A program made the position numbers and the translations under genes. Shown piece after piece: positions 2,698 to 33,236 of a stretch of 64,000 nucleotides of DNA; the stretch's first letter is position 1; every line of letters starts with the position of its first letter. The notes beneath the pieces were generated by a model. That model was not told the origin of the DNA. It did no database searches and worked only from the letters and a program-made list of their open reading frames with translations. The stretch comes from Escherichia coli (lineage in GTDB: Bacteria > Pseudomonadota > Gammaproteobacteria > Enterobacterales > Enterobacteriaceae): the NCBI RefSeq assembly GCF_003018255.1, contig NZ_CP027440.1. One strand, 5' to 3'.

Positions 2698-2924
2698 TGA
2701 ATAAATCCTTTAGTTATTTTATTTGCCTTTTATCCCCATTTCGGGGAGTGAAAACATCCTAAAGGAGAAGTTCAGTTAGCCGATAAATATCATTTGTTAC
2801 GCCTTAAGTAAAACCTTAATCAAATAATTCTACGGAAATGATAATAAGTCTGGTGAATGTATTGAAGATAATACATACAAAATAAAAATTATACTTTTAA
2901 TTTGCTATACGTTATTCTGCGCGG

Positions 2925-3033
2925 GTTATATGCCTTTATTGTCACAGATTTTATTTTCTGTTGGGCCATTGCATTGCTACTGATTTTCCAACATATAAAA
3001 AGACAAGCCCGAACAGTCGTCCGGGCTTTTTTT
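2925..3033 (+). ncRNA. micC: MicC small regulatory RNA, including its intrinsic terminator
   Basis: Sequence GTTATATGCCTTTATTGTCACAGATTTTATTTTCTGTTGGGCCATTGCATTGC...AAGCCCGAACAGTCGTCCGGGCTTTTTTTT matches remembered MicC; located between ompN and ydbK as in K-12. Confidence 0.85.
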
Positions 3034-3062
3034 TAGAATTGGATAATCCTTATCCAGTGCAT

Positions 3063-21225: not shown

Positions 21226-24200
21226 ATGACAGAACAACAAAAATTGACCTTTACGGCCTTGCAGCAGCGGCTGGATTCGCTGATGCTGCGCGACAGACTG
21301 CGTTTTTCTCGCCGTCTGCACGGCGTGAAGAAGGTTAAAAATCCTGATGCACAACAGGCCATTTTCCAGGAGATGGCGAAAGAGATTGACCATGCGGCAG
21401 GGAAAGTCCTGCTGCGTGAAGCGGCACGACCGGAAATCACTTATCCGGACAATTTGCCGGTTAGTCAGAAAAAGCAGGACATACTCGAAGCGATTCGTGA
21501 TCACCAGGTGGTGATCGTCGCCGGGGAAACCGGTTCCGGTAAAACGACTCAGCTACCGAAAATCTGTATGGAACTGGGGCGCGGGATTAAAGGGCTGATC
21601 GGTCATACCCAACCGCGTCGCCTGGCGGCACGAACGGTGGCGAACCGTATTGCGGAAGAGCTGAAAACGGAGCCGGGCGGTTGCATCGGTTACAAAGTGC
21701 GTTTCAGTGATCACGTTAGTGATAACACGATGGTCAAGCTGATGACCGACGGTATCCTGCTGGCGGAGATCCAGCAAGACCGCCTGCTGATGCAGTACGA
21801 CACTATCATTATTGACGAAGCGCACGAACGTAGCCTGAATATCGATTTTCTGCTCGGCTATTTGAAAGAGTTGCTACCGCGGCGTCCTGACCTAAAAATC
21901 ATTATCACTTCCGCGACTATCGACCCGGAACGCTTTTCGCGCCACTTTAATAATGCGCCGATTATCGAAGTCTCCGGTCGGACCTATCCGGTGGAAGTGC
22001 GCTATCGACCGATTGTTGAAGAAGCCGATGACACCGAGCGCGATCAGCTGCAGGCGATTTTTGACGCCGTAGACGAACTGAGTCAGGAAAGCTCCGGCGA
22101 CATTCTGATCTTTATGAGCGGTGAGCGGGAAATTCGCGATACCGCCGATGCGCTGAACAAGCTGAACTTACGCCATACCGAAATCTTGCCGCTTTATGCG
22201 CGGCTTTCGAACAGCGAACAGAACCGCGTGTTCCTGTCGCACAGTGGACGGCGCATTGTGCTGGCGACCAACGTCGCGGAAACGTCGCTGACCGTACCGG
22301 GTATTAAATACGTTATCGACCCAGGTACGGCGCGTATCAGCCGCTACAGCTATCGCACTAAAGTGCAGCGTTTGCCGATTGAGCCGATTTCTCAGGCGTC
22401 TGCCAATCAGCGTAAAGGCCGCTGTGGTCGTGTGTCCGAAGGGATCTGTATTCGTCTCTATTCCGAAGACGATTTCCTCTCGCGCCCGGAGTTTACCGAT
22501 CCGGAGATTCTGCGTACTAACCTGGCCTCGGTTATTTTGCAGATGACCGCGCTGGGGTTGGGCGATATCGCCGCGTTCCCATTTGTCGAAGCACCGGATA
22601 AACGTAATATCCAGGATGGCGTGCGTCTGCTCGAAGAGCTGGGCGCGATCACCACTGATGAACAGGCCAGCGCCTATAAACTGACGCCGCTCGGTCGCCA
22701 GCTTTCGCAATTGCCTGTCGATCCTCGTCTGGCGCGTATGGTGCTGGAAGCGCAAAAACATGGCTGCGTGCGTGAGGCGATGATTATCACGTCCGCGCTC
22801 TCCATTCAGGATCCGCGCGAGCGTCCGATGGATAAACAGCAGGCATCAGACGAAAAACATCGCCGCTTCCACGACAAAGAATCCGACTTCCTCGCGTTTG
22901 TAAATCTGTGGAATTATCTCGGCGAGCAGCAAAAGGCGCTTTCTTCTAACGCCTTCCGTCGCCTGTGTCGTACCGATTATCTCAACTATCTGCGCGTGCG
23001 CGAATGGCAGGATATCTACACCCAGTTGCGCCAGGTGGTGAAAGAACTTGGCATTCCGGTTAACAGCGAACCGGCGGAGTATCGCGAAATTCACATTGCG
23101 TTGCTGACGGGTTTGCTTTCCCATATCGGCATGAAAGATGCCGATAAACAAGAATATACCGGCGCACGTAACGCGCGTTTTTCCATCTTTCCCGGTTCTG
23201 GTTTATTCAAAAAGCCGCCGAAATGGGTAATGGTGGCGGAACTGGTAGAAACCAGCCGCCTGTGGGGGCGCATTGCTGCGCGTATCGACCCTGAATGGGT
23301 AGAACCCGTTGCTCAGCATTTGATTAAACGCACCTACAGCGAACCGCACTGGGAACGGGCGCAGGGCGCGGTGATGGCAACGGAAAAAGTCACTGTTTAT
23401 GGTTTGCCGATTGTTGCTGCGCGTAAGGTCAACTACAGCCAGATCGATCCGGCGTTATGTCGTGAACTCTTTATTCGCCACGCTCTGGTGGAAGGTGACT
23501 GGCAGACGCGTCACGCATTCTTCCGTGAAAACCTGAAACTGCGGGCCGAAGTGGAAGAGCTGGAACACAAATCACGTCGCCGCGATATTCTGGTTGATGA
23601 CGAAACGCTGTTTGAGTTCTACGACCAGCGCATCAGCCACGATGTAATCTCCGCTCGTCACTTCGATAGCTGGTGGAAAAAAGTCAGCCGCGAAACGCCT
23701 GATTTGCTCAACTTTGAAAAGAGCATGTTGATCAAAGAAGGGGCGGAAAAAATCAGCAAGCTGGATTATCCGAACTTCTGGCATCAGGGCAATCTCAAGC
23801 TGCGTTTGAGCTATCAGTTTGAGCCAGGCGCGGACGCGGACGGTGTGACCGTGCATATTCCGCTGCCGCTGCTTAATCAGGTAGAAGAGAGCGGGTTTGA
23901 ATGGCAAATCCCCGGTCTGCGCCGCGAACTGGTGATTGCTCTGATTAAATCGTTGCCGAAACCAGTACGCCGTAATTTTGTGCCCGCGCCAAACTACGCC
24001 GAAGCGTTTCTAGGCCGCGTCACACCGTTGGAATTGTCGTTGCTCGACAGTCTTGAACGAGAGCTACGGCGGATGACTGGCGTCACCGTTGACCGCGAAG
24101 ACTGGCACTGGGATCAGGTGCCCGATCACCTGAAAATCACCTTCCGTGTGGTGGATGACAAAAACAAGAAGCTAAAAGAAGGGCGCTCATTACAGGATCT

Positions 24201-25128
24201 GAAAGATGCTCTGAAAGGCAAAGTGCAGGAAACGCTGTCTGCGGTGGCGGATGACGGTATCGAGCAGAGCGGCTTACATATCTGGAGCTTTGGGCAACTG
24301 CCGGAAAGCTACGAACAGAAGCGTGGCAACTACAAAGTGAAGGCGTGGCCAGCGTTGGTGGATGAGCGCGACAGCGTGGCGATCAAACTGTTTGATAACC
24401 CGCTGGAACAAAAGCAAGCGATGTGGAACGGTCTTCGTCGTTTACTGCTGCTGAATATTCCATCGCCGATCAAGTATTTGCATGAAAAGTTACCGAACAA
24501 AGCCAAGCTGGGGCTGTACTTTAACCCGTATGGCAAAGTGCTGGAGCTGATCGACGACTGTATCTCCTGCGGGGTGGATCAACTGATCGACGCCAATGGA
24601 GGCCCGGTCTGGACGGAAGAAGGCTTTGCTGCGCTGCATGAGAAAGTCCGCGCTGAACTGAACGATACGGTGGTGGATATTGCGAAGCAGGTCGAGCAAA
24701 TCCTTACGGCAGTGTTCAATATCAACAAACGCCTGAAAGGGCGGGTGGATATGACTATGGCGCTGGGGCTTTCTGACATCAAAGCGCAGATGGGCGGGCT
24801 GGTGTATCGCGGTTTTGTCACTGGTAACGGTTTTAAACGGCTGGGCGACACGCTGCGTTATTTGCAGGCGATTGAAAAACGACTGGAAAAACTGGCGGTT
24901 GATCCGCATCGTGACCGTGCTCAGATGCTGAAAGTCGAAAATGTCCAGCAGGCGTGGCAGCAATGGATCAACAAACTGCCGCCCGCACGTCGTGAGGATG
25001 AAGACGTGAAAGAGATCCGTTGGATGATAGAAGAGTTGCGCGTTAGTTACTTCGCTCAACAACTTGGTACGCCTTATCCGATTTCAGATAAGCGTATTTT
25101 GCAGGCGATGGAGCAGATTAGCGGTTAA
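21226..25128 (+). CDS. hrpA: ATP-dependent DEAH-box RNA helicase HrpA (1300 aa)
   Basis: Walker A GETGSGKTTQ, DEAH motif (IIIDEAHERS), 1300 aa. Confidence 0.93.
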   Translation: MTEQQKLTFTALQQRLDSLMLRDRLRFSRRLHGVKKVKNPDAQQAIFQEMAKEIDHAAGKVLLREAARPEITYPDNLPVSQKKQDILEAIRDHQVVIVAGETGSGKTTQLPKICMELGRGIKGLIGHTQPRRLAARTVANRIAEELKTEPGGCIGYKVRFSDHVSDNTMVKLMTDGILLAEIQQDRLLMQYDTIIIDEAHERSLNIDFLLGYLKELLPRRPDLKIIITSATIDPERFSRHFNNAPIIEVSGRTYPVEVRYRPIVEEADDTERDQLQAIFDAVDELSQESSGDILIFMSGEREIRDTADALNKLNLRHTEILPLYARLSNSEQNRVFLSHSGRRIVLATNVAETSLTVPGIKYVIDPGTARISRYSYRTKVQRLPIEPISQASANQRKGRCGRVSEGICIRLYSEDDFLSRPEFTDPEILRTNLASVILQMTALGLGDIAAFPFVEAPDKRNIQDGVRLLEELGAITTDEQASAYKLTPLGRQLSQLPVDPRLARMVLEAQKHGCVREAMIITSALSIQDPRERPMDKQQASDEKHRRFHDKESDFLAFVNLWNYLGEQQKALSSNAFRRLCRTDYLNYLRVREWQDIYTQLRQVVKELGIPVNSEPAEYREIHIALLTGLLSHIGMKDADKQEYTGARNARFSIFPGSGLFKKPPKWVMVAELVETSRLWGRIAARIDPEWVEPVAQHLIKRTYSEPHWERAQGAVMATEKVTVYGLPIVAARKVNYSQIDPALCRELFIRHALVEGDWQTRHAFFRENLKLRAEVEELEHKSRRRDILVDDETLFEFYDQRISHDVISARHFDSWWKKVSRETPDLLNFEKSMLIKEGAEKISKLDYPNFWHQGNLKLRLSYQFEPGADADGVTVHIPLPLLNQVEESGFEWQIPGLRRELVIALIKSLPKPVRRNFVPAPNYAEAFLGRVTPLELSLLDSLERELRRMTGVTVDREDWHWDQVPDHLKITFRVVDDKNKKLKEGRSLQDLKDALKGKVQETLSAVADDGIEQSGLHIWSFGQLPESYEQKRGNYKVKAWPALVDERDSVAIKLFDNPLEQKQAMWNGLRRLLLLNIPSPIKYLHEKLPNKAKLGLYFNPYGKVLELIDDCISCGVDQLIDANGGPVWTEEGFAALHEKVRAELNDTVVDIAKQVEQILTAVFNINKRLKGRVDMTMALGLSDIKAQMGGLVYRGFVTGNGFKRLGDTLRYLQAIEKRLEKLAVDPHRDRAQMLKVENVQQAWQQWINKLPPARREDEDVKEIRWMIEELRVSYFAQQLGTPYPISDKRILQAMEQISG

Positions 25129-25153
25129 CACTGCTATTTGCCTGATAAATCTA

Positions 25154-25186
25154 AAACCCGGTAAGCATTTAGCGCCGGGTTTTTTA
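25154..25186 (+). terminator. Rho-independent terminator after hrpA
   Basis: Hairpin AACCCGG...CCGGGTT followed by TTTTTT. Confidence 0.55.
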
Positions 25187-25399
25187 TTAATTCTAAAACG
25201 GTAAGGGCAAAAATTCAGGAATTCAGAAAAATACAATTCTCAGCTGCAAGATGAATAATGTTTATCTACAGCATTTCCTTAAAAGATATGTCAGGCTTGC
25301 GGAGTGGCGGTTAAGGAAATAGGACTTCCTCCTTTCAGAGTGCTCCGCTTCTCACTATTATCTCACGCAGTATTCTTAAGGGAACGATAAGGAGGAACC

Positions 25400-26200
25400 A
25401 TGAACATTACCCCGTTTCCGACGCTTTCGCCGGCAACCATAGATGCCATAAATGTTATCGGTCAGTGGCTGGCGCAGGATGATTTCTCCGGTGAGATGCC
25501 GTATCAGGCCGATTGCGTGATCCTTGCAGGCAATGCGGTTATGCCGACTATCGACGCGGCATGTAAGATTGCCCGCGATCAGCAAATTCCTTTACTGATC
25601 AGTGGTGGTATCGGTCACTCGACAACTTTTTTGTATAGCGCCATCGCACAGCATCCGCACTACAACACTATCCGCACCACTGGCAGAGCAGAAGCGACCA
25701 TCCTGGCGGATATCGCTCATCAGTTCTGGCACATTCCGCATGAAAAAATCTGGATTGAAGACCAGTCAACAAACTGCGGTGAAAACGCACGCTTTAGCAT
25801 CGCGCTATTGAATCAGGCCGTAGAACGAGTTCATACGGCTATCGTTGTTCAGGACCCCACCATGCAGCGGCGCACGATGGCGACGTTCCGCCGTATGACT
25901 GGGGACAATCCCGATGCACCACGCTGGTTAAGTTATCCCGGATTCGTTCCTCAGTTAGGAAATAACGCAGACAGTGTAATCTTTGTTAATCCGTTGCAAG
26001 GATTATGGCCGGTTGAGCGTTATCTCTCACTACTCACTGGCGAGCTGCCACGTTTACGCGATGATAGCGATGGCTACGGTCCACGCGGGCGAGATTTTAT
26101 CGTTCACGTTGATTTTCCGGCAGAAGTCATCCAGGCATGGCAAACGCTGAAACACGATGCGGTGCTCATCGAGGCGATGGAAAGTCGCTCGTTACGTTAA
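25400..26200 (+). CDS. ydcF: DUF218-family protein YdcF (266 aa)
   Basis: Size and position between hrpA and aldA; RBS AGGAGG upstream. Confidence 0.8.
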
Positions 26201-26396
26201 AAATTGCCCGTTTGTGAACCACTTGTTTGCAAACGGGCATAACTCCTGCCTTTTATTTCTGCCTCTTATTCCTTTTATACTTGTTTTTATGAAGCCCTTC
26301 ACAGAATTGTCCTTTCATGATGCCGTCTCTATGATGATTGATGTTAATTAACAATGCATTTACCAAAAACAAACATATAAATCACAGGAGTCGCTC

Positions 26397-27836
26397 ATGT
26401 CAGTACCCGTTCAACATCCTATGTATATTGATGGACAGTTTGTTACCTGGCGTGGAGACGCATGGATTGATGTGGTAAACCCTGCTACAGAGGCTGTCAT
26501 TTCCCGCATTCCCGATGGTCAGGCCGAGGATGCCCGTAAGGCAATCGATGCAGCAGAACGTGCACAACCAGAATGGGAAGCGTTGCCTGCTATTGAACGC
26601 GCCAGTTGGTTGCGCAAAATCTCCGCCGGGATCCGCGAACGCGCCAGTGAAATCAGTACGCTGATTGTTGAAGAAGGGGGTAAGATCCAGCAGCTGGCTG
26701 AAGTCGAAGTGGCTTTTACTGCGGACTATATCGATTACATGGCGGAGTGGGCACGGCGTTATGAAGGCGAGATTATTCAAAGCGATCGTCCAGGAGAAAA
26801 TATTCTTCTGTTTAAACGTGCGCTTGGCGTGACTACCGGCATTCTGCCGTGGAACTTCCCGTTCTTCCTCATTGCCCGCAAAATGGCTCCCGCTCTTTTG
26901 ACCGGTAATACCATCGTCATTAAACCCAGTGAATTTACGCCAAACAATGCGATTGCATTCGCCAAAATTGTCGATGAAATAGGCCTTCCGCGCGGCGTGT
27001 TTAACCTTGTTCTGGGGCGTGGTGAAACCGTTGGGCAAGAACTGGCGGGTAACCCAAAGGTCGCAATGGTCAGTATGACAGGCAGCGTCTCTGCAGGTGA
27101 AAAGATTATGGCGACTGCGGCGAAAAACATCACCAAAGTGTGCCTGGAATTGGGGGGTAAAGCACCGGCTATCGTAATGGACGATGCCGATCTTGAACTG
27201 GCAGTCAAAGCCATCGTTGATTCACGCGTCATTAATAGTGGGCAAGTGTGTAACTGTGCAGAACGTGTTTATGTACAGAAAGGCATTTATGATCAGTTTG
27301 TCAATCGGCTGGGTGAAGCGATGCAGGCGGTTCAATTTGGTAACCCCGCTGAACGCAACGACATTGCGATGGGGCCGTTGATTAACGCCGCGGCGCTGGA
27401 AAGGGTCGAGCAAAAAGTGGCGCGCGCAGTAGAAGAAGGGGCGAGAGTGGCGTTGGGTGGCAAAGCGGTAGAGGGGAAAGGATATTATTATCCGCCGACA
27501 TTGCTGCTGGATGTTCGCCAGGAAATGTCGATTATGCATGAGGAAACCTTTGGCCCGGTTCTGCCGGTGGTCGCATTTGACACGCTGGAAGAGGCTATCT
27601 CAATGGCGAATGATAGTGATTACGGCCTGACCTCATCAATCTATACCCAAAATCTGAACGTCGCGATGAAAGCCATTAAAGGGCTGAAGTTTGGTGAAAC
27701 TTACATCAACCGTGAAAACTTCGAAGCTATGCAAGGATTCCACGCCGGATGGCGTAAATCTGGTATTGGCGGCGCAGATGGCAAACATGGCTTGCATGAA
27801 TATCTGCAGACCCAGGTGGTTTATTTACAGTCTTAA
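26397..27836 (+). CDS. aldA: Lactaldehyde dehydrogenase (479 aa)
   Basis: MSVPVQHPMYIDGQFVTW...; aldehyde dehydrogenase catalytic Cys region (NSGQVCNCAERVYV). Confidence 0.92.
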   Translation: MSVPVQHPMYIDGQFVTWRGDAWIDVVNPATEAVISRIPDGQAEDARKAIDAAERAQPEWEALPAIERASWLRKISAGIRERASEISTLIVEEGGKIQQLAEVEVAFTADYIDYMAEWARRYEGEIIQSDRPGENILLFKRALGVTTGILPWNFPFFLIARKMAPALLTGNTIVIKPSEFTPNNAIAFAKIVDEIGLPRGVFNLVLGRGETVGQELAGNPKVAMVSMTGSVSAGEKIMATAAKNITKVCLELGGKAPAIVMDDADLELAVKAIVDSRVINSGQVCNCAERVYVQKGIYDQFVNRLGEAMQAVQFGNPAERNDIAMGPLINAAALERVEQKVARAVEEGARVALGGKAVEGKGYYYPPTLLLDVRQEMSIMHEETFGPVLPVVAFDTLEEAISMANDSDYGLTSSIYTQNLNVAMKAIKGLKFGETYINRENFEAMQGFHAGWRKSGIGGADGKHGLHEYLQTQVVYLQS

Positions 27837-27844
27837 TGAGTGGA

Positions 27845-27872
27845 AGAGGCGGAGGTTTTTCCTCCGCCTGTG
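27845..27872. terminator. Bidirectional rho-independent terminator between convergent aldA and gapC
   Basis: Hairpin AGGCGGAGG-TTTTT-CCTCCGCCT. Confidence 0.6.
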
Positions 27873-27876
27873 TGCG

Positions 27877-28878
27877 TCAGAGTTTAGCGAATTTTTCGAG
27901 GGTGCGAATGAGTTGTGTGACGAAGCCATATTCGTTATCGTACCAGGCGACCGTTTTCACCAGTTGTAAATCGCCCACGGCGGTAATTTCCGTTTGCGTG
28001 GCATCAAACACCGACCCGAAATGGCTGCCAATGATATCGGAAGAGACTATTTCTTCATCGGTATAACCAAATGACTCGTTATTGGTGGTTGCTTGTTTAA
28101 GTGCGTTATTCACCTCTTCGGCAGTCACTTTTTTTGCGAGAATGGACACCAGCTCAGTGACCGAACCTGTTTTCACCGGCACGCGTTGCGCATGACCTTT
28201 CAGTTTGCCGCTCAGTTCCGGGATCACCAGACCAATGGCTTTTGCCGCACCTGTAGTGTGGGGAATGATATTTTCTGCCGCTGCGCGTGAAGCTCGTAAA
28301 TCCTTCCCACGCGGACCATCCACCAGTGACTGGGTGCCGGTATAGGCATGAATGGTCGTCATCGTGCCGACTTCTATCCCGAAACTGTCATGCAAGGCTT
28401 TGGCCATCGGCGCAAGGCAGTTAGTGGTGCATGACGCCACGGAAACAATGGTGTCGTTGCCATCCAGAGTGTCGTCATTGACGTTATAAACGATAGTTTT
28501 CATTTCACCGGCAGGGGCGGAAATCAACACCTTCTTCGCACCAGCATCAAGGTGCGCCTGCGATTTCTCTGCGGAGGTATAAAAGCCAGTACATTCGACA
28601 ATGATTTCTGCGCCTTTCGCTTTCCATGGAATATTTTTAGCCTCTTTTTCGGCGTAAACCGCGATACTTTTTCCATCAACGATAAGTGAATCTTCCGTAA
28701 AATCAACGCTCCAGGGGAACGGTCCGTAGTTTGAATCATGTTTCAGCAGGTAGGCGAGAATTTTTGGGGAAGTGAGATCATTAATAGCGACAACGTCTAT
28801 GTTGCTTTTGACTTCAAGTAATCGACGCAACACCAGTCGACCGATACGACCAAAACCATTAATACCAACTTTACTCAT
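27877..28878 (-). CDS. gapC: Glyceraldehyde-3-phosphate dehydrogenase C, apparently intact (333 aa)
   Basis: [21 protein letters not shown]... with the catalytic SCTTNC motif; one uninterrupted 333-aa ORF. Confidence 0.88.
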
Positions 28879-29066
28879 GGTCTTCTCCTGTCAGGAACGT
28901 TCGGATGAAAATTGATCCTTTCCAGGCTTAGACCAGGATGGCGGGATGGGCAATCTACATTCTTGCAGTGAAACGTAACGTACTGAAAACGGGTGAACAA
29001 TATTTAATGAAATTTTAAGAAAAGCCCGTTATGTTAACGGCAAATTATGTTAAAGCAGGAAATGTT

Positions 29067-29597
29067 ATGGGAAATAAATACTCAAGGTTACAAATCAGCA
29101 TTCACTGGCTGGTCTTTTTGCTGGTTATCGTAGCGTATTGCGCAATGGAGTTTCGTGGTTTCTTCCCACGTAGCGATCGGCCCCTCATCAACATGATTCA
29201 TGTTTCCTGTGGCATCTCAATTCTCGTACTGATGGTGGTTCGTCTTTTGTTAAGACTGAAATACCCAACCCCGCCGATTATACCTAAGCCAAAACCGATG
29301 ATGACGGGACTGGCGCATTTGGGCCATTTGGTGATTTATCTCCTGTTTATTGCGCTGCCAGTGATTGGTTTGGTGATGATGTATAACCGGGGTAACCCGT
29401 GGTTTGCGTTTGGTATGACGATGCCTTATGCATCAGAGGCCAATTTCGAACGGGTTGATAGCTTAAAGTCGTGGCATGAAACGCTGGCGAATCTGGGATA
29501 TTTTGTCATCGGGTTGCACGCTGCGGCTGCACTGGCACACCACTATTTCTGGAAGGACAACACACTTCTACGCATGATGCCGCGTAAACGTTCCTGA
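29067..29597 (+). CDS. cybB: Cytochrome b561 (176 aa)
   Basis: From internal Met: MGNKYSRLQISIHWLVFLLV...; membrane haem protein. Confidence 0.88.
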   Translation: MGNKYSRLQISIHWLVFLLVIVAYCAMEFRGFFPRSDRPLINMIHVSCGISILVLMVVRLLLRLKYPTPPIIPKPKPMMTGLAHLGHLVIYLLFIALPVIGLVMMYNRGNPWFAFGMTMPYASEANFERVDSLKSWHETLANLGYFVIGLHAAAALAHHYFWKDNTLLRMMPRKRS

Positions 29598-29607
29598 AGG
29601 ATATTTA

Positions 29608-29671
29608 AAGAAAACGCCTGTACTAAAACCGACCCGTGGTACAGGCGAAGAATACGGGTCTACATCGGAAG
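29608..29671 (-). ncRNA. rydC: RydC small RNA (about 64 nt)
   Basis: Minus-strand sequence CTTCCGATGTAGACCCGTATTCTTCGCCTGTACCACGGGTCGGTTTTAGTACAGGCGTTTTCTT matches remembered RydC; cybB-ydcA intergenic position as in K-12. Confidence 0.8.
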
Positions 29672-29841
29672 CGCCTATTATATTTATTTGTATGACAAAT
29701 AAAACCATAATCCTTGCCCATACGTCCATCTGGCTTATTTTTAATCAATTCACCCGATCTTTGATCTCATCAACGGTATCAAAATAAACCAGCGTATAAC
29801 GTTAAAATCGAACATAAGATTCGATAAATCATGGAGGTTAT

Positions 29842-30015
29842 ATGAAAAAACTGGCACTTATCTTGGTTATAGGAACGCTTGTTTCCTTTTATGCCGATGC
29901 CGGGCGCAAACCCTGTTCTGGTTCGAAAGGGGGGATCTCACACTGTACGGCAGGCGGCAAATTTGTTTGTAATGATGGTTCTATTAGTGCATCGAAAAAA
30001 ACATGCATTAACTGA
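29842..30015 (+). CDS. ydcA: Small secreted/lipoprotein-like protein YdcA (57 aa)
   Basis: [20 protein letters not shown] signal peptide; RBS GGAGG upstream. Confidence 0.75.
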
Positions 30016-30086
30016 AGTGTAAAAGGGGTGCCATGAGAAAATGAATCTGCTAGTCAGATGCGCGGGGAAAATCCCCGCGCTTGCCC

Positions 30087-30294
<208 letters not shown>

Positions 30295-30634
30295 TCGTTG
30301 GCCTCGGTTGATAGAAATATCGGTCGGGGCCTTCGTCTTTCTGATTCCCGGTTAGCCTGAAAACAGAAAGTCTCAGGCACCCGCAGGCATCCTATGAGGT
30401 TTCCTTAGGGACGAAAATAATCACTTTACGAAATTGCGTGCTGTTTTCCAGAATTTTTCGTCATTCGGGTTAGCCAGTTTAGCCATTCGTTACTCTCTTC
30501 ATTCCAATAGCATTAATTTTCTCTGCAATAATTGTTGTAAAAATGTGACGCAAAGAGGTTTTTGGTCATAAGTAATTACCGTCAAGTGCCGATGACTTTC
30601 TATCAGGAGTAAACCTGGACGAGAGACAACGGTA

Positions 30635-32275
30635 ATGAATACAACTCCCTCACAGCGATTAGGTTTTTTGCATCACATCAGGCTGGTTCCGTTATTTGCC
30701 TGCATTCTTGGCGGTATCTTAGTTCTATTCGCATTAAGTTCTGCTCTGGCTGGCTATTTCCTCTGGCAGGCCGATCGCGATCAGCGTGATGTTACTGCGG
30801 AGATTGAGATTCGGACCGGGTTAGCGAACAGTTCAGATTTTTTGCGTTCAGCCCGGATCAATATGATTCAGGCCGGGGCAGCGAGTCGTATTGCGGAAAT
30901 GGAATCAATGAAGCGAAATATTGCGCAAGCCGAATCGGAGATTAAACAGTCGCAGCAAGGTTATCGTGCTTATCAGAATCGGTCGGTGAAAACACCTGCT
31001 GATGAAGCCCTCGACACTGAATTAAATCAACGCTTCCAGGCTTATATCACGGGTATGCAACCTATGTTGAAATATGCCAAAAATGGCATGTTTGAAGCGA
31101 TTATCAATCATGAAAGTGAGCAGATCCGACCGCTGGATAATGCTTATACCGATATTTTGAGCAAAGCCGTTAAGATACGTAGCACCAGAGCCAACCAACT
31201 GGCGGAACTGGCCCATCAGCGCACCCGCCTGGGTGGGATGTTCATGATTGGCGCGTTTGTGCTTGCCCTGGTCATGACGCTGATAACATTTATGGTGCTA
31301 CGTCGGATCGTCATTCGTCCACTGCAACATGCCGCACAACGGATTGAAAAAATCGCCAGTGGCGATCTGACGATGAATGATGAACCGGCGGGTCGTAATG
31401 AAATCGGTCGCTTAAGTCGTCATTTACAGCAAATGCAGCATTCACTGGGGATGACAGTAGGGACTGTTCGACAGGGTGCGGAAGAGATTTATCGTGGCAC
31501 CAGCGAAATTTCCGCTGGCAATGCGGACCTTTCATCTCGCACCGAAGAACAAGCGGCGGCAATCGAACAAACTGCCGCCAGCATGGAGCAACTCACTGCG
31601 ACGGTGAAACAGAATGCGGATAACGCGCATCATGCCAGCAAACTGGCGCAAGAGGCTTCTATTAAAGCCAGCGATGGCGGGCAGACGGTTTCCGGTGTAG
31701 TAAAAACGATGGGCGCTATCTCCACGAGTTCGAAGAAAATTTCTGAGATCACCGCCGTCATCAACAGTATTGCTTTCCAGACGAATATTCTGGCACTGAA
31801 TGCTGCCGTTGAAGCCGCGCGAGCGGGTGAGCAAGGGCGTGGATTTGCCGTTGTCGCCAGCGAAGTACGGACACTCGCAAGCCGCAGCGCTCAGGCGGCG
31901 AAAGAGATTGAAGGCTTGATCAGTGAATCAGTCAGGTTAATTGACCTGGGATCGGATGAGGTGGCCACGGCCGGGAAAACCATGAGCACTATTGTTGATG
32001 CCGTCGCGAGTGTCACACATATCATGCAGGAAATTGCCGCCGCCTCGGATGAGCAAAGTAGGGGTATAACGCAGGTTAGCCAGGCGATATCTGAAATGGA
32101 TAAGGTGACGCAACAGAATGCTTCTCTGGTAGAAGAGGCCTCAGCAGCGGCAGTGTCCCTTGAAGAACAGGCGGCACGATTAACTGAGGCGGTGGACGTA
32201 TTCCGTCTGAACAAACATTCTGTGTCGGCAGAACCTCGCGGAGCTGGTGAACCAGTTAGTTTCGCTACAGTGTGA
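30635..32275 (+). CDS. trg: Methyl-accepting chemotaxis protein III, ribose/galactose transducer (546 aa)
   Basis: Two TM segments, HAMP domain and conserved MCP signalling domain ([29 protein letters not shown]). Confidence 0.92.
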
Positions 32276-32312
32276 AAATGTTAAAGGAGGGATCGACAGA
32301 TCCCTTCACCTT

Positions 32313-33236
32313 TCAGAACGGCATTGATTTTCGAATAGCGTTAATCATCAACTGGCAACCAGAAGAGAACGTCGCATCTACGCGGGTCAGTATTCCAATC
32401 GGTTCGCCTGCACCATGACCCGGAACAGGCAGGGCCACCAGCGTGGCATGACGCAGGTCGTCTTTTACAGCGCCAGAAGGGACAAACCACACGTAATCGT
32501 ATTCAACCGTAAGTTGACGAGATAGCGAAGCAGACAGCGTTTCGATACAACCCGAAGGAATTTTACATCCCTGGCTCTGCACTAATGCATCTGAATGCTG
32601 GCGTGGCGCAGTGCCTTCTGGTGATACAACGACCGGCCATTCCAGCACCCGGCTTAGCGTTACGTTCTCCTGAAGTAGCGGATGATTAGGGCGGACAACC
32701 AGCTTCAGCGATTCAAGAAACAGCAGTTCGTAATTAAGTCCGGTCATCAGTTCAGGATCTGACATCCGACCAATGCCGATATCGATTTCCCCGGTTTTTA
32801 AACCCGCAAGAATCATAGGGTTACTCATTGTCGCAACTTGCAAGGTCGTCTCTTTTTGTTGCTGATGAAACTGACCTATAACCGAAGGTAATATCCCCAG
32901 TGCCGCAGTCGGTAGTGCACCAACCCTGACGACATCATTATTAAGACCTTCTTTACGATGAAGCGACTGTCCAGCAGTGTTGATGGCGTCAAGCACTCTG
33001 ACTGCATGCGTTAAAAATTGTTCGCCGGGTAAGGTAAGTTGCGCCCCCTGACGACCACGCTCAAACAAGCGAGCGCCCGTCAGCTGCTCCAGTTCATTCA
33101 ATGTCTTAGAGAGCGCAGGTTGACTCAAATTAAGGGTTTCAGCCGCGCGCCCCAAAGTTCCTTGTTGTGCGACAGCTACGAATGTATGAAGGTGGCGCAA
33201 ACGGATGCGCTGACTAAACAGACTATTTTTTTCCAT
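32313..33236 (-). CDS. ydcI: LysR-family transcriptional regulator (307 aa)
   Basis: From internal Met: MEKNSLFSQRIRLRHLHTFVAVAQQGTLGRAAETLNLSQPALSKTLNELE (LysR HTH). Confidence 0.85.
   Translation of the reverse strand: MEKNSLFSQRIRLRHLHTFVAVAQQGTLGRAAETLNLSQPALSKTLNELEQLTGARLFERGRQGAQLTLPGEQFLTHAVRVLDAINTAGQSLHRKEGLNNDVVRVGALPTAALGILPSVIGQFHQQQKETTLQVATMSNPMILAGLKTGEIDIGIGRMSDPELMTGLNYELLFLESLKLVVRPNHPLLQENVTLSRVLEWPVVVSPEGTAPRQHSDALVQSQGCKIPSGCIETLSASLSRQLTVEYDYVWFVPSGAVKDDLRHATLVALPVPGHGAGEPIGILTRVDATFSSGCQLMINAIRKSMPF

Follow-up and report, generated by a model that had tools for sequence, protein, structure and literature searches.

Escherichia coli K-12 carries gapC as a pseudogene: RefSeq flags the copy in BW25113 as 'frameshifted; internal stop', and a K-12 transcriptome paper gives gapC_1 (b1417) as 'interrupted'. 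In the 64,000-nucleotide stretch of E. coli DNA analyzed here (hereafter the window), the same gene is a single open frame, which raises the questions of what an intact gapC encodes, how exceptional it is within the species and whether it is in use. A preliminary description had presented it as an intact 333-aa GAPDH gene with an SCTTNC motif, split in K-12, convergent with aldA across a shared bidirectional terminator and possibly a third functional GAPDH paralogue of this strain. We integrated protein family models, structure database searches and alignment to K-12 with allele counts from complete E. coli genomes. Taken as a whole, the evidence leaves us highly confident that the window gapC is the intact ancestral allele and that it encodes a conventional type I GAPDH, presumably auxiliary to GapA.

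The gapC locus and its shared 3' end

The features on which the analysis rests are as follows, in window coordinates:

26397..27836, plus strand: aldA (aldehyde dehydrogenase A), convergent with gapC (ORF, syntenic annotation)
27847..27869, no strand assigned: shared aldA/gapC 3' hairpin, a GC-rich, perfect 9-bp stem (AGGCGGAGG/CCTCCGCCT) with a T5 loop (fold, alignment)
27877..28878, minus strand: gapC, type I GAPDH (EC 1.2.1.12) (TIGR01534, Pfam, 100% to RefSeq WP_000048661.1, 332/333 to PDB 7C5F)
28129..28137, minus strand: codon 248 (GCA, Ala; GGA, Gly in other alleles), then an A7 run that is A6 in K-12 (alignment)
28348..28350, minus strand: CAT codon of the catalytic His177 (window translation)
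28429..28431, minus strand: TGC codon of the catalytic Cys150, in SCTTNC (window translation)
28762..28764, minus strand: codon 39, AAA (Lys) in the window and TAA in K-12 (alignment, translations, allele counts)
28879..29066, no strand assigned: divergent cybB-gapC intergenic region, 188 bp, presumed promoter region of gapC (conservation)
28885..28889, minus strand: Shine-Dalgarno sequence AGGAG, 6 nt 5' of the gapC ATG (read from the sequence)
29067..29597, plus strand: cybB (cytochrome b561), divergent from gapC (start from the 531-nt RefSeq annotation)

The ORF listing gives gapC as 333 uninterrupted codons on the minus strand (27877-28878), from an ATG start to a C-terminus of ...LEKFAKL, with no stop inside the frame. 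Its product scored 448.4 bits (E=1.4e-134) against TIGR01534, the NCBIfam equivalog model of type I GAPDH (curated cut-off 367.2), covering model positions 1-330 of 330. Pfam assigned Gp_dh_N, the NAD-binding Rossmann domain, to residues 3-102 and Gp_dh_C, the catalytic domain, to residues 155-313, both far over their gathering scores. The SCTTNC motif occupies residues 149-154 with Cys150 inside it. In the window translation, the dinucleotide-binding motif GxGxxG reads G8-F-G10-R-I-G13 and Asp34 lies in ...AIND34L; an acidic residue here (Asp34) favours NAD over NADP in GAPDHs. The frame is no chance ORF, and the observation of an intact gapC is confirmed.

E. coli strain 104 carries the gene with 100% identity over all 1002 bp, annotated in RefSeq as 'gap' (WP_000048661.1), in the order ydcI-trg-hokB-yncP-orf-cybB-gap-aldA-ydcF-hrpA. 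BW25113 has the same order, and in the window gapC is flanked by cybB and aldA as it is in K-12. The cybB ORF has its first ATG at 29031, ahead of the start at 29067 set by RefSeq. At the nucleotide level, the window gapC is 97.5% identical to that of K-12, within the range of its neighbours (94.9-99.3%), a level that led us to reject unusual divergence or horizontal replacement of the allele.

The surroundings yielded several further observations. Although gapC is identical in the two strains, the window differs from strain 104 at 51 positions across 9,002 bp (23877-32878). A partial hrpA segment, 94.9% identical to K-12, clearly diverges more than the region's other genes do, suggesting a recombined segment. 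Directly downstream of cybB lies the gene for the RydC sRNA (29608-29671, minus strand; Rfam RF00505, 92.5 bits, gathering score 48). A sok antitoxin RNA (30231-30382, minus strand; Rfam RF01794, 104.8 bits) marks a hokB/sokB type I toxin-antitoxin locus, and both strain 104 and K-12 have hokB and yncP annotated at the corresponding position. The gene for the MicC sRNA was found at 2922-3042 on the plus strand (Rfam RF00121, 125.8 bits).

As the preliminary description had it, gapC and aldA converge, and their stop codons, at 27877-27879 and 27834-27836, respectively, lie 40 nt apart. The bidirectional terminator proposed for this spacer stands in part: its hairpin, common to both 3' ends, folds at -23.5 and -18.2 kcal/mol on the two strands (z -2.8 and -3.7), and the stem is invariant in 18 of the 18 loci compared. 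A shared 3' stem-loop of aldA and gapC is real. A U-tract 3' of the stem is absent on both strands (tails GUGUGCGUCAGA in the aldA sense and CUUCCACUCAUU in the gapC sense), and a consensus terminator scan did not call the hairpin; it may plausibly act as a transcription terminator. The window tail on the gapC side, CUUCC, is poorer in U than its counterparts in other alleles (CUUUC or CUUUU). The window and strain 104 share a T5 loop (27856-27860) where the other 16 loci have 6 nt, giving spacers of 40 and 41 nt, respectively.

Two K-12 lesions and the frequency of intact gapC

Pairwise alignment and translations located two lesions in the K-12 gene. Codon 39 has changed from AAA to TAA (Lys39 to stop), where the window keeps AAA, and a 1-bp deletion has shortened an A7 run to A6 at gene nt 744-750 (window 28129-28135). 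Neither lesion is found in the window gapC by alignment to K-12 and translation, and the realignment to the K-12 gene that the preliminary description had proposed as a check left the window sequence without an internal stop or frameshift; the split state of the K-12 gene was likewise borne out. Loss of gapC in the K-12 lineage combined a nonsense change at codon 39 with a single-base deletion in a homopolymeric A run.

The frequency of each state was estimated in a database of 5,426 complete E. coli genomes with 33-mers centred on each lesion, a design in which a central mismatch removes every 28-base seed. DNA of gapC was found in 5,417 of the 5,426 genomes, and the remaining 9 had no gapC match. 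By these 33-mers, the K-12 TAA39 allele is present in 1,154 of the 5,426 genomes and the window-type AAA39 sequence in 3,711, with the A6 frameshift allele in 1,046. Of 39 full-length matches sampled at even spacing, 7 spanned 1001 bp, the length expected of the K-12-type deletion, and the two 1001-bp alleles inspected were both annotated as frameshifted with an internal stop. Fifteen of the 16 1002-bp alleles examined were intact; the exception, from PK8241, has the codon-39 stop only. From the allele-specific 33-mer counts and the 16-allele sample, as opposed to translation of the whole set, we estimate that at least about three quarters of the complete E. coli genomes would carry an intact gapC. 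By this estimate, the species normally has the gene unbroken, and K-12 with its lineage (~20% of complete genomes) forms the exception.

Copies 100% identical to the window allele were found in at least 60 complete genomes, many being poultry or APEC strains. TAA39 was found in many isolates from nature, of human, pig, sheep, frog, beach-water and waste-water origin, and the lesion is therefore not purely a laboratory phenomenon. That K-12 differs in this respect has been on record since the late 1990s, as conveyed by a review from the Espinosa-Urgel laboratory on Espinosa-Urgel & Kolter 1998; according to this review, environmental isolates have an intact gapC and express it preferentially in fresh water, and laboratory strains keep the promoter response of gapC and carry truncating mutations. 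The view that laboratory strains accumulate these mutations is incomplete: TAA39 is a natural lineage polymorphism. The strain-specific novelty that the preliminary description implied does not survive these comparisons, the intact gene being both the majority state and already published. The finding is correct and ordinary, and of low interest as a discovery.

The PK8241 allele (L005, NZ_CP080139.1, 201-1202) combines the TAA39 stop with an R18G substitution, lacks the A-run frameshift and has a window-like haplotype (GTGTCC) in its 3' half. This combination suggests either that the nonsense change may have preceded the frameshift or that recombination may have taken place inside gapC, a reading that fits the higher count of stop alleles (1,154) than of frameshift alleles (1,046). 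Records labelled as plasmids account for five of the gapC matches, some genomes have gapC in two places, and a few carry only a fragment of the gene, such as H40 with 20% of it. The plasmid copies and the missing and fragmentary genes point to further independent duplications or losses.

These frequencies make K-12 an atypical reference at the gapC locus, which matters little beyond annotation hygiene. Within that scope, the entry 'gapC = pseudogene' in metabolic models, knock-out designs and choices of neutral integration sites is untransferable to most natural, pathogenic or poultry E. coli, most of which would encode a second active GAPDH.

Selection on gapC and its expression

An intact frame may still be a gene out of use. 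Expression of gapC could be too low to contribute, making the window copy a pseudogene in waiting; we regard this as quite unlikely. The losses described above speak for it: the gene is gone from ~20% of complete E. coli genomes without apparent harm, and truncations and absences (the 9 genomes with no match, and H40) add to them. The substitution pattern of the surviving copies argues the other way. Over 15 distinct gapC alleles, Nei-Gojobori dN/dS is ~0.04, and polymorphic codons with synonymous changes only outnumber those with an amino-acid change by 65 to 10, which together indicate purifying selection on intact gapC. The dS among E. coli alleles is high, reaching 0.19 between the window and allele L016, and a ratio this low at such a dS is unexpected for neutral sequence. 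The K-12 lesions are a widespread natural lineage polymorphism (1,154/5,426) in a gene that elsewhere is under strong purifying selection. Allele L008 carries T152S within the SCTTNC active-site motif, together with S245L.

Regulatory sequences bear on the same question. The cybB-gapC intergenic region is 96.3% identical to K-12 and highly conserved in all loci compared, K-12 included. Its conservation, like that of the Shine-Dalgarno sequence and of the 3' hairpin, argues against a cryptic gene. A promoter consensus scan returned one match (29073..29044, minus strand) against 2.0 expected from shuffles, and no promoter is claimed. The lack of a significant consensus promoter and the dominance of GapA as the GAPDH of the cell are in keeping with a silent gapC; the main text of an O157:H7 proteome paper mentions GapA as the only GAPDH. 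Against silence, even K-12 has an active gapC promoter that depends on sigma-S: ChIP-seq places a sigma-S peak in the gapC_1/cybB region, gapC_1 is among the genes responding in carbon-limited culture, and gapC-1 and gapC-2 are up-regulated in an rpoS-dependent manner in slow-growing PTS- strains. All of this regulatory evidence was obtained in K-12, with its broken copy of the gene. The fresh-water expression described in the Espinosa-Urgel review also speaks against a cryptic gene.

We therefore return to an intact and auxiliary enzyme as the preferred reading of the window gapC. Transcription would start in the conserved region between cybB and gapC, chiefly under sigma-S control and in carbon-limited or environmental settings, and GapC would act beside GapA, which would carry the bulk of glycolytic flux. 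A bolder version is conceivable, and we hold it as speculation that is more probably wrong than right: GapC would be a conditionally important second GAPDH (under sigma-S control, carbon limitation or in cold fresh water) kept by purifying selection in most E. coli, its loss in the K-12 lineage would be natural and niche-linked instead of a product of domestication, and the poultry-associated G248A substitution could alter the properties of the enzyme.

Enzyme identity and comparison with known systems

G248A alone separates the window GapC from the most frequent GapC protein (WP_000048667.1, carried by most sampled strains); position 248 adjoins the A run frameshifted in K-12. This substitution is the only feature specific to the window allele, and nothing indicates that it has an effect. 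The same residue is the sole difference (Gly248 versus Ala248) between the window protein and a set of solved structures: a PDB search returned 7C5F, 7C5G, 7C5H, 7C7K and others, with native sequences identical at 332 of 333 residues. The nearest solved relatives outside E. coli GapC, in the PDB ranking, are other bacterial GAPDHs.

The 2021 paper describing these structures names the protein E. coli type 1 GAPDH, 'EcGAPDH1'; it does not use the name gapC and leaves the source strain unstated, and we equate EcGAPDH1 with GapC on the basis of the 332/333 identity. The wild-type enzyme was active with a Km for G3P of 0.73 mM, and mutants of C150 and H177 had their activity abolished or lowered 10^3- to 10^4-fold (C150 was essential, and H177A was ~8,000-fold less active). 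Structures were solved with NAD, G3P, the thioacyl intermediate and BPG. Given this near-identity, the window gapC very probably encodes an active GAPDH.

The data from EcGAPDH1, which has G248, likewise underlie the canonical phosphorylating mechanism that we infer for the A248 protein of the window. GapC would be a homotetrameric, NAD+-dependent, phosphorylating type I GAPDH of bacterial type, distinct from GapA and Epd. Cys150 would attack glyceraldehyde-3-phosphate to give a thiohemiacetal and then a thioacyl intermediate, with His177 acting as base, and phosphate would attack the thioester to release 1,3-bisphosphoglycerate.

The family to which GapC belongs contains neofunctionalised paralogues, and GapC has sub-threshold matches to models of such enzymes, so that another substrate or role, such as that of an Epd-like E4P dehydrogenase or an arsenate-linked GAPDH, deserves consideration. 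We judge it very improbable. Scores against the Epd models were 277.3 bits for TIGR01532 (cut-off 530.55) and 281 for PRK13535 (cut-off 539), and the ArsJ-associated GAPDH model NF033735 gave 307.9 bits (cut-off 450), all far below the thresholds, whereas the type I equivalog was passed. The immediate neighbours of gapC are cybB and aldA, with no arsJ beside it, and a protein of 99.7% identity turns over G3P with NAD and has been captured with G3P, as the thioacyl intermediate and with BPG. An Epd-like or ArsJ-type enzyme was rejected on these grounds. That the intact frame is a sequencing or assembly artefact, for instance a miscounted A7, can be dismissed: the K-12 frameshift does lie in a homopolymer, a classic site of sequencing error, but the exact 1002-bp allele recurs in the at least 60 independent complete genomes noted above, and TAA39, a substitution, is also absent from the window.

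With these alternatives weighed, a conventional type I GAPDH remains our reading of the window gene, and four known systems place it. The orthologous locus of E. coli K-12 (gapC_1/gapC_2, b1417/b1416) shares the conserved upstream region and 3' hairpin and differs in having TAA39 and the A6 run, neither of which occurs in the window gapC. GapA, the housekeeping GAPDH, has the same fold and predicted chemistry, and both are type I enzymes; the GapA-type model PRK15425 scored 300.7 bits against a cut-off of 662, and GapC is therefore a distinct paralogue and not a GapA orthologue. Epd (GapB), the erythrose-4-phosphate dehydrogenase, is a superfamily paralogue, and GapC is not an Epd. As to the third functional GAPDH paralogue of the preliminary description, GapC does count third in the GAPDH family of E. 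coli, behind GapA and Epd, and second among the true GAPDHs. The closest match is EcGAPDH1/GapC itself, which shares the locus (cybB-gapC-aldA), the length, the termini and the Cys150/His177 pair with the window protein and differs from it by one substitution, the G248A common to at least 60 complete genomes.
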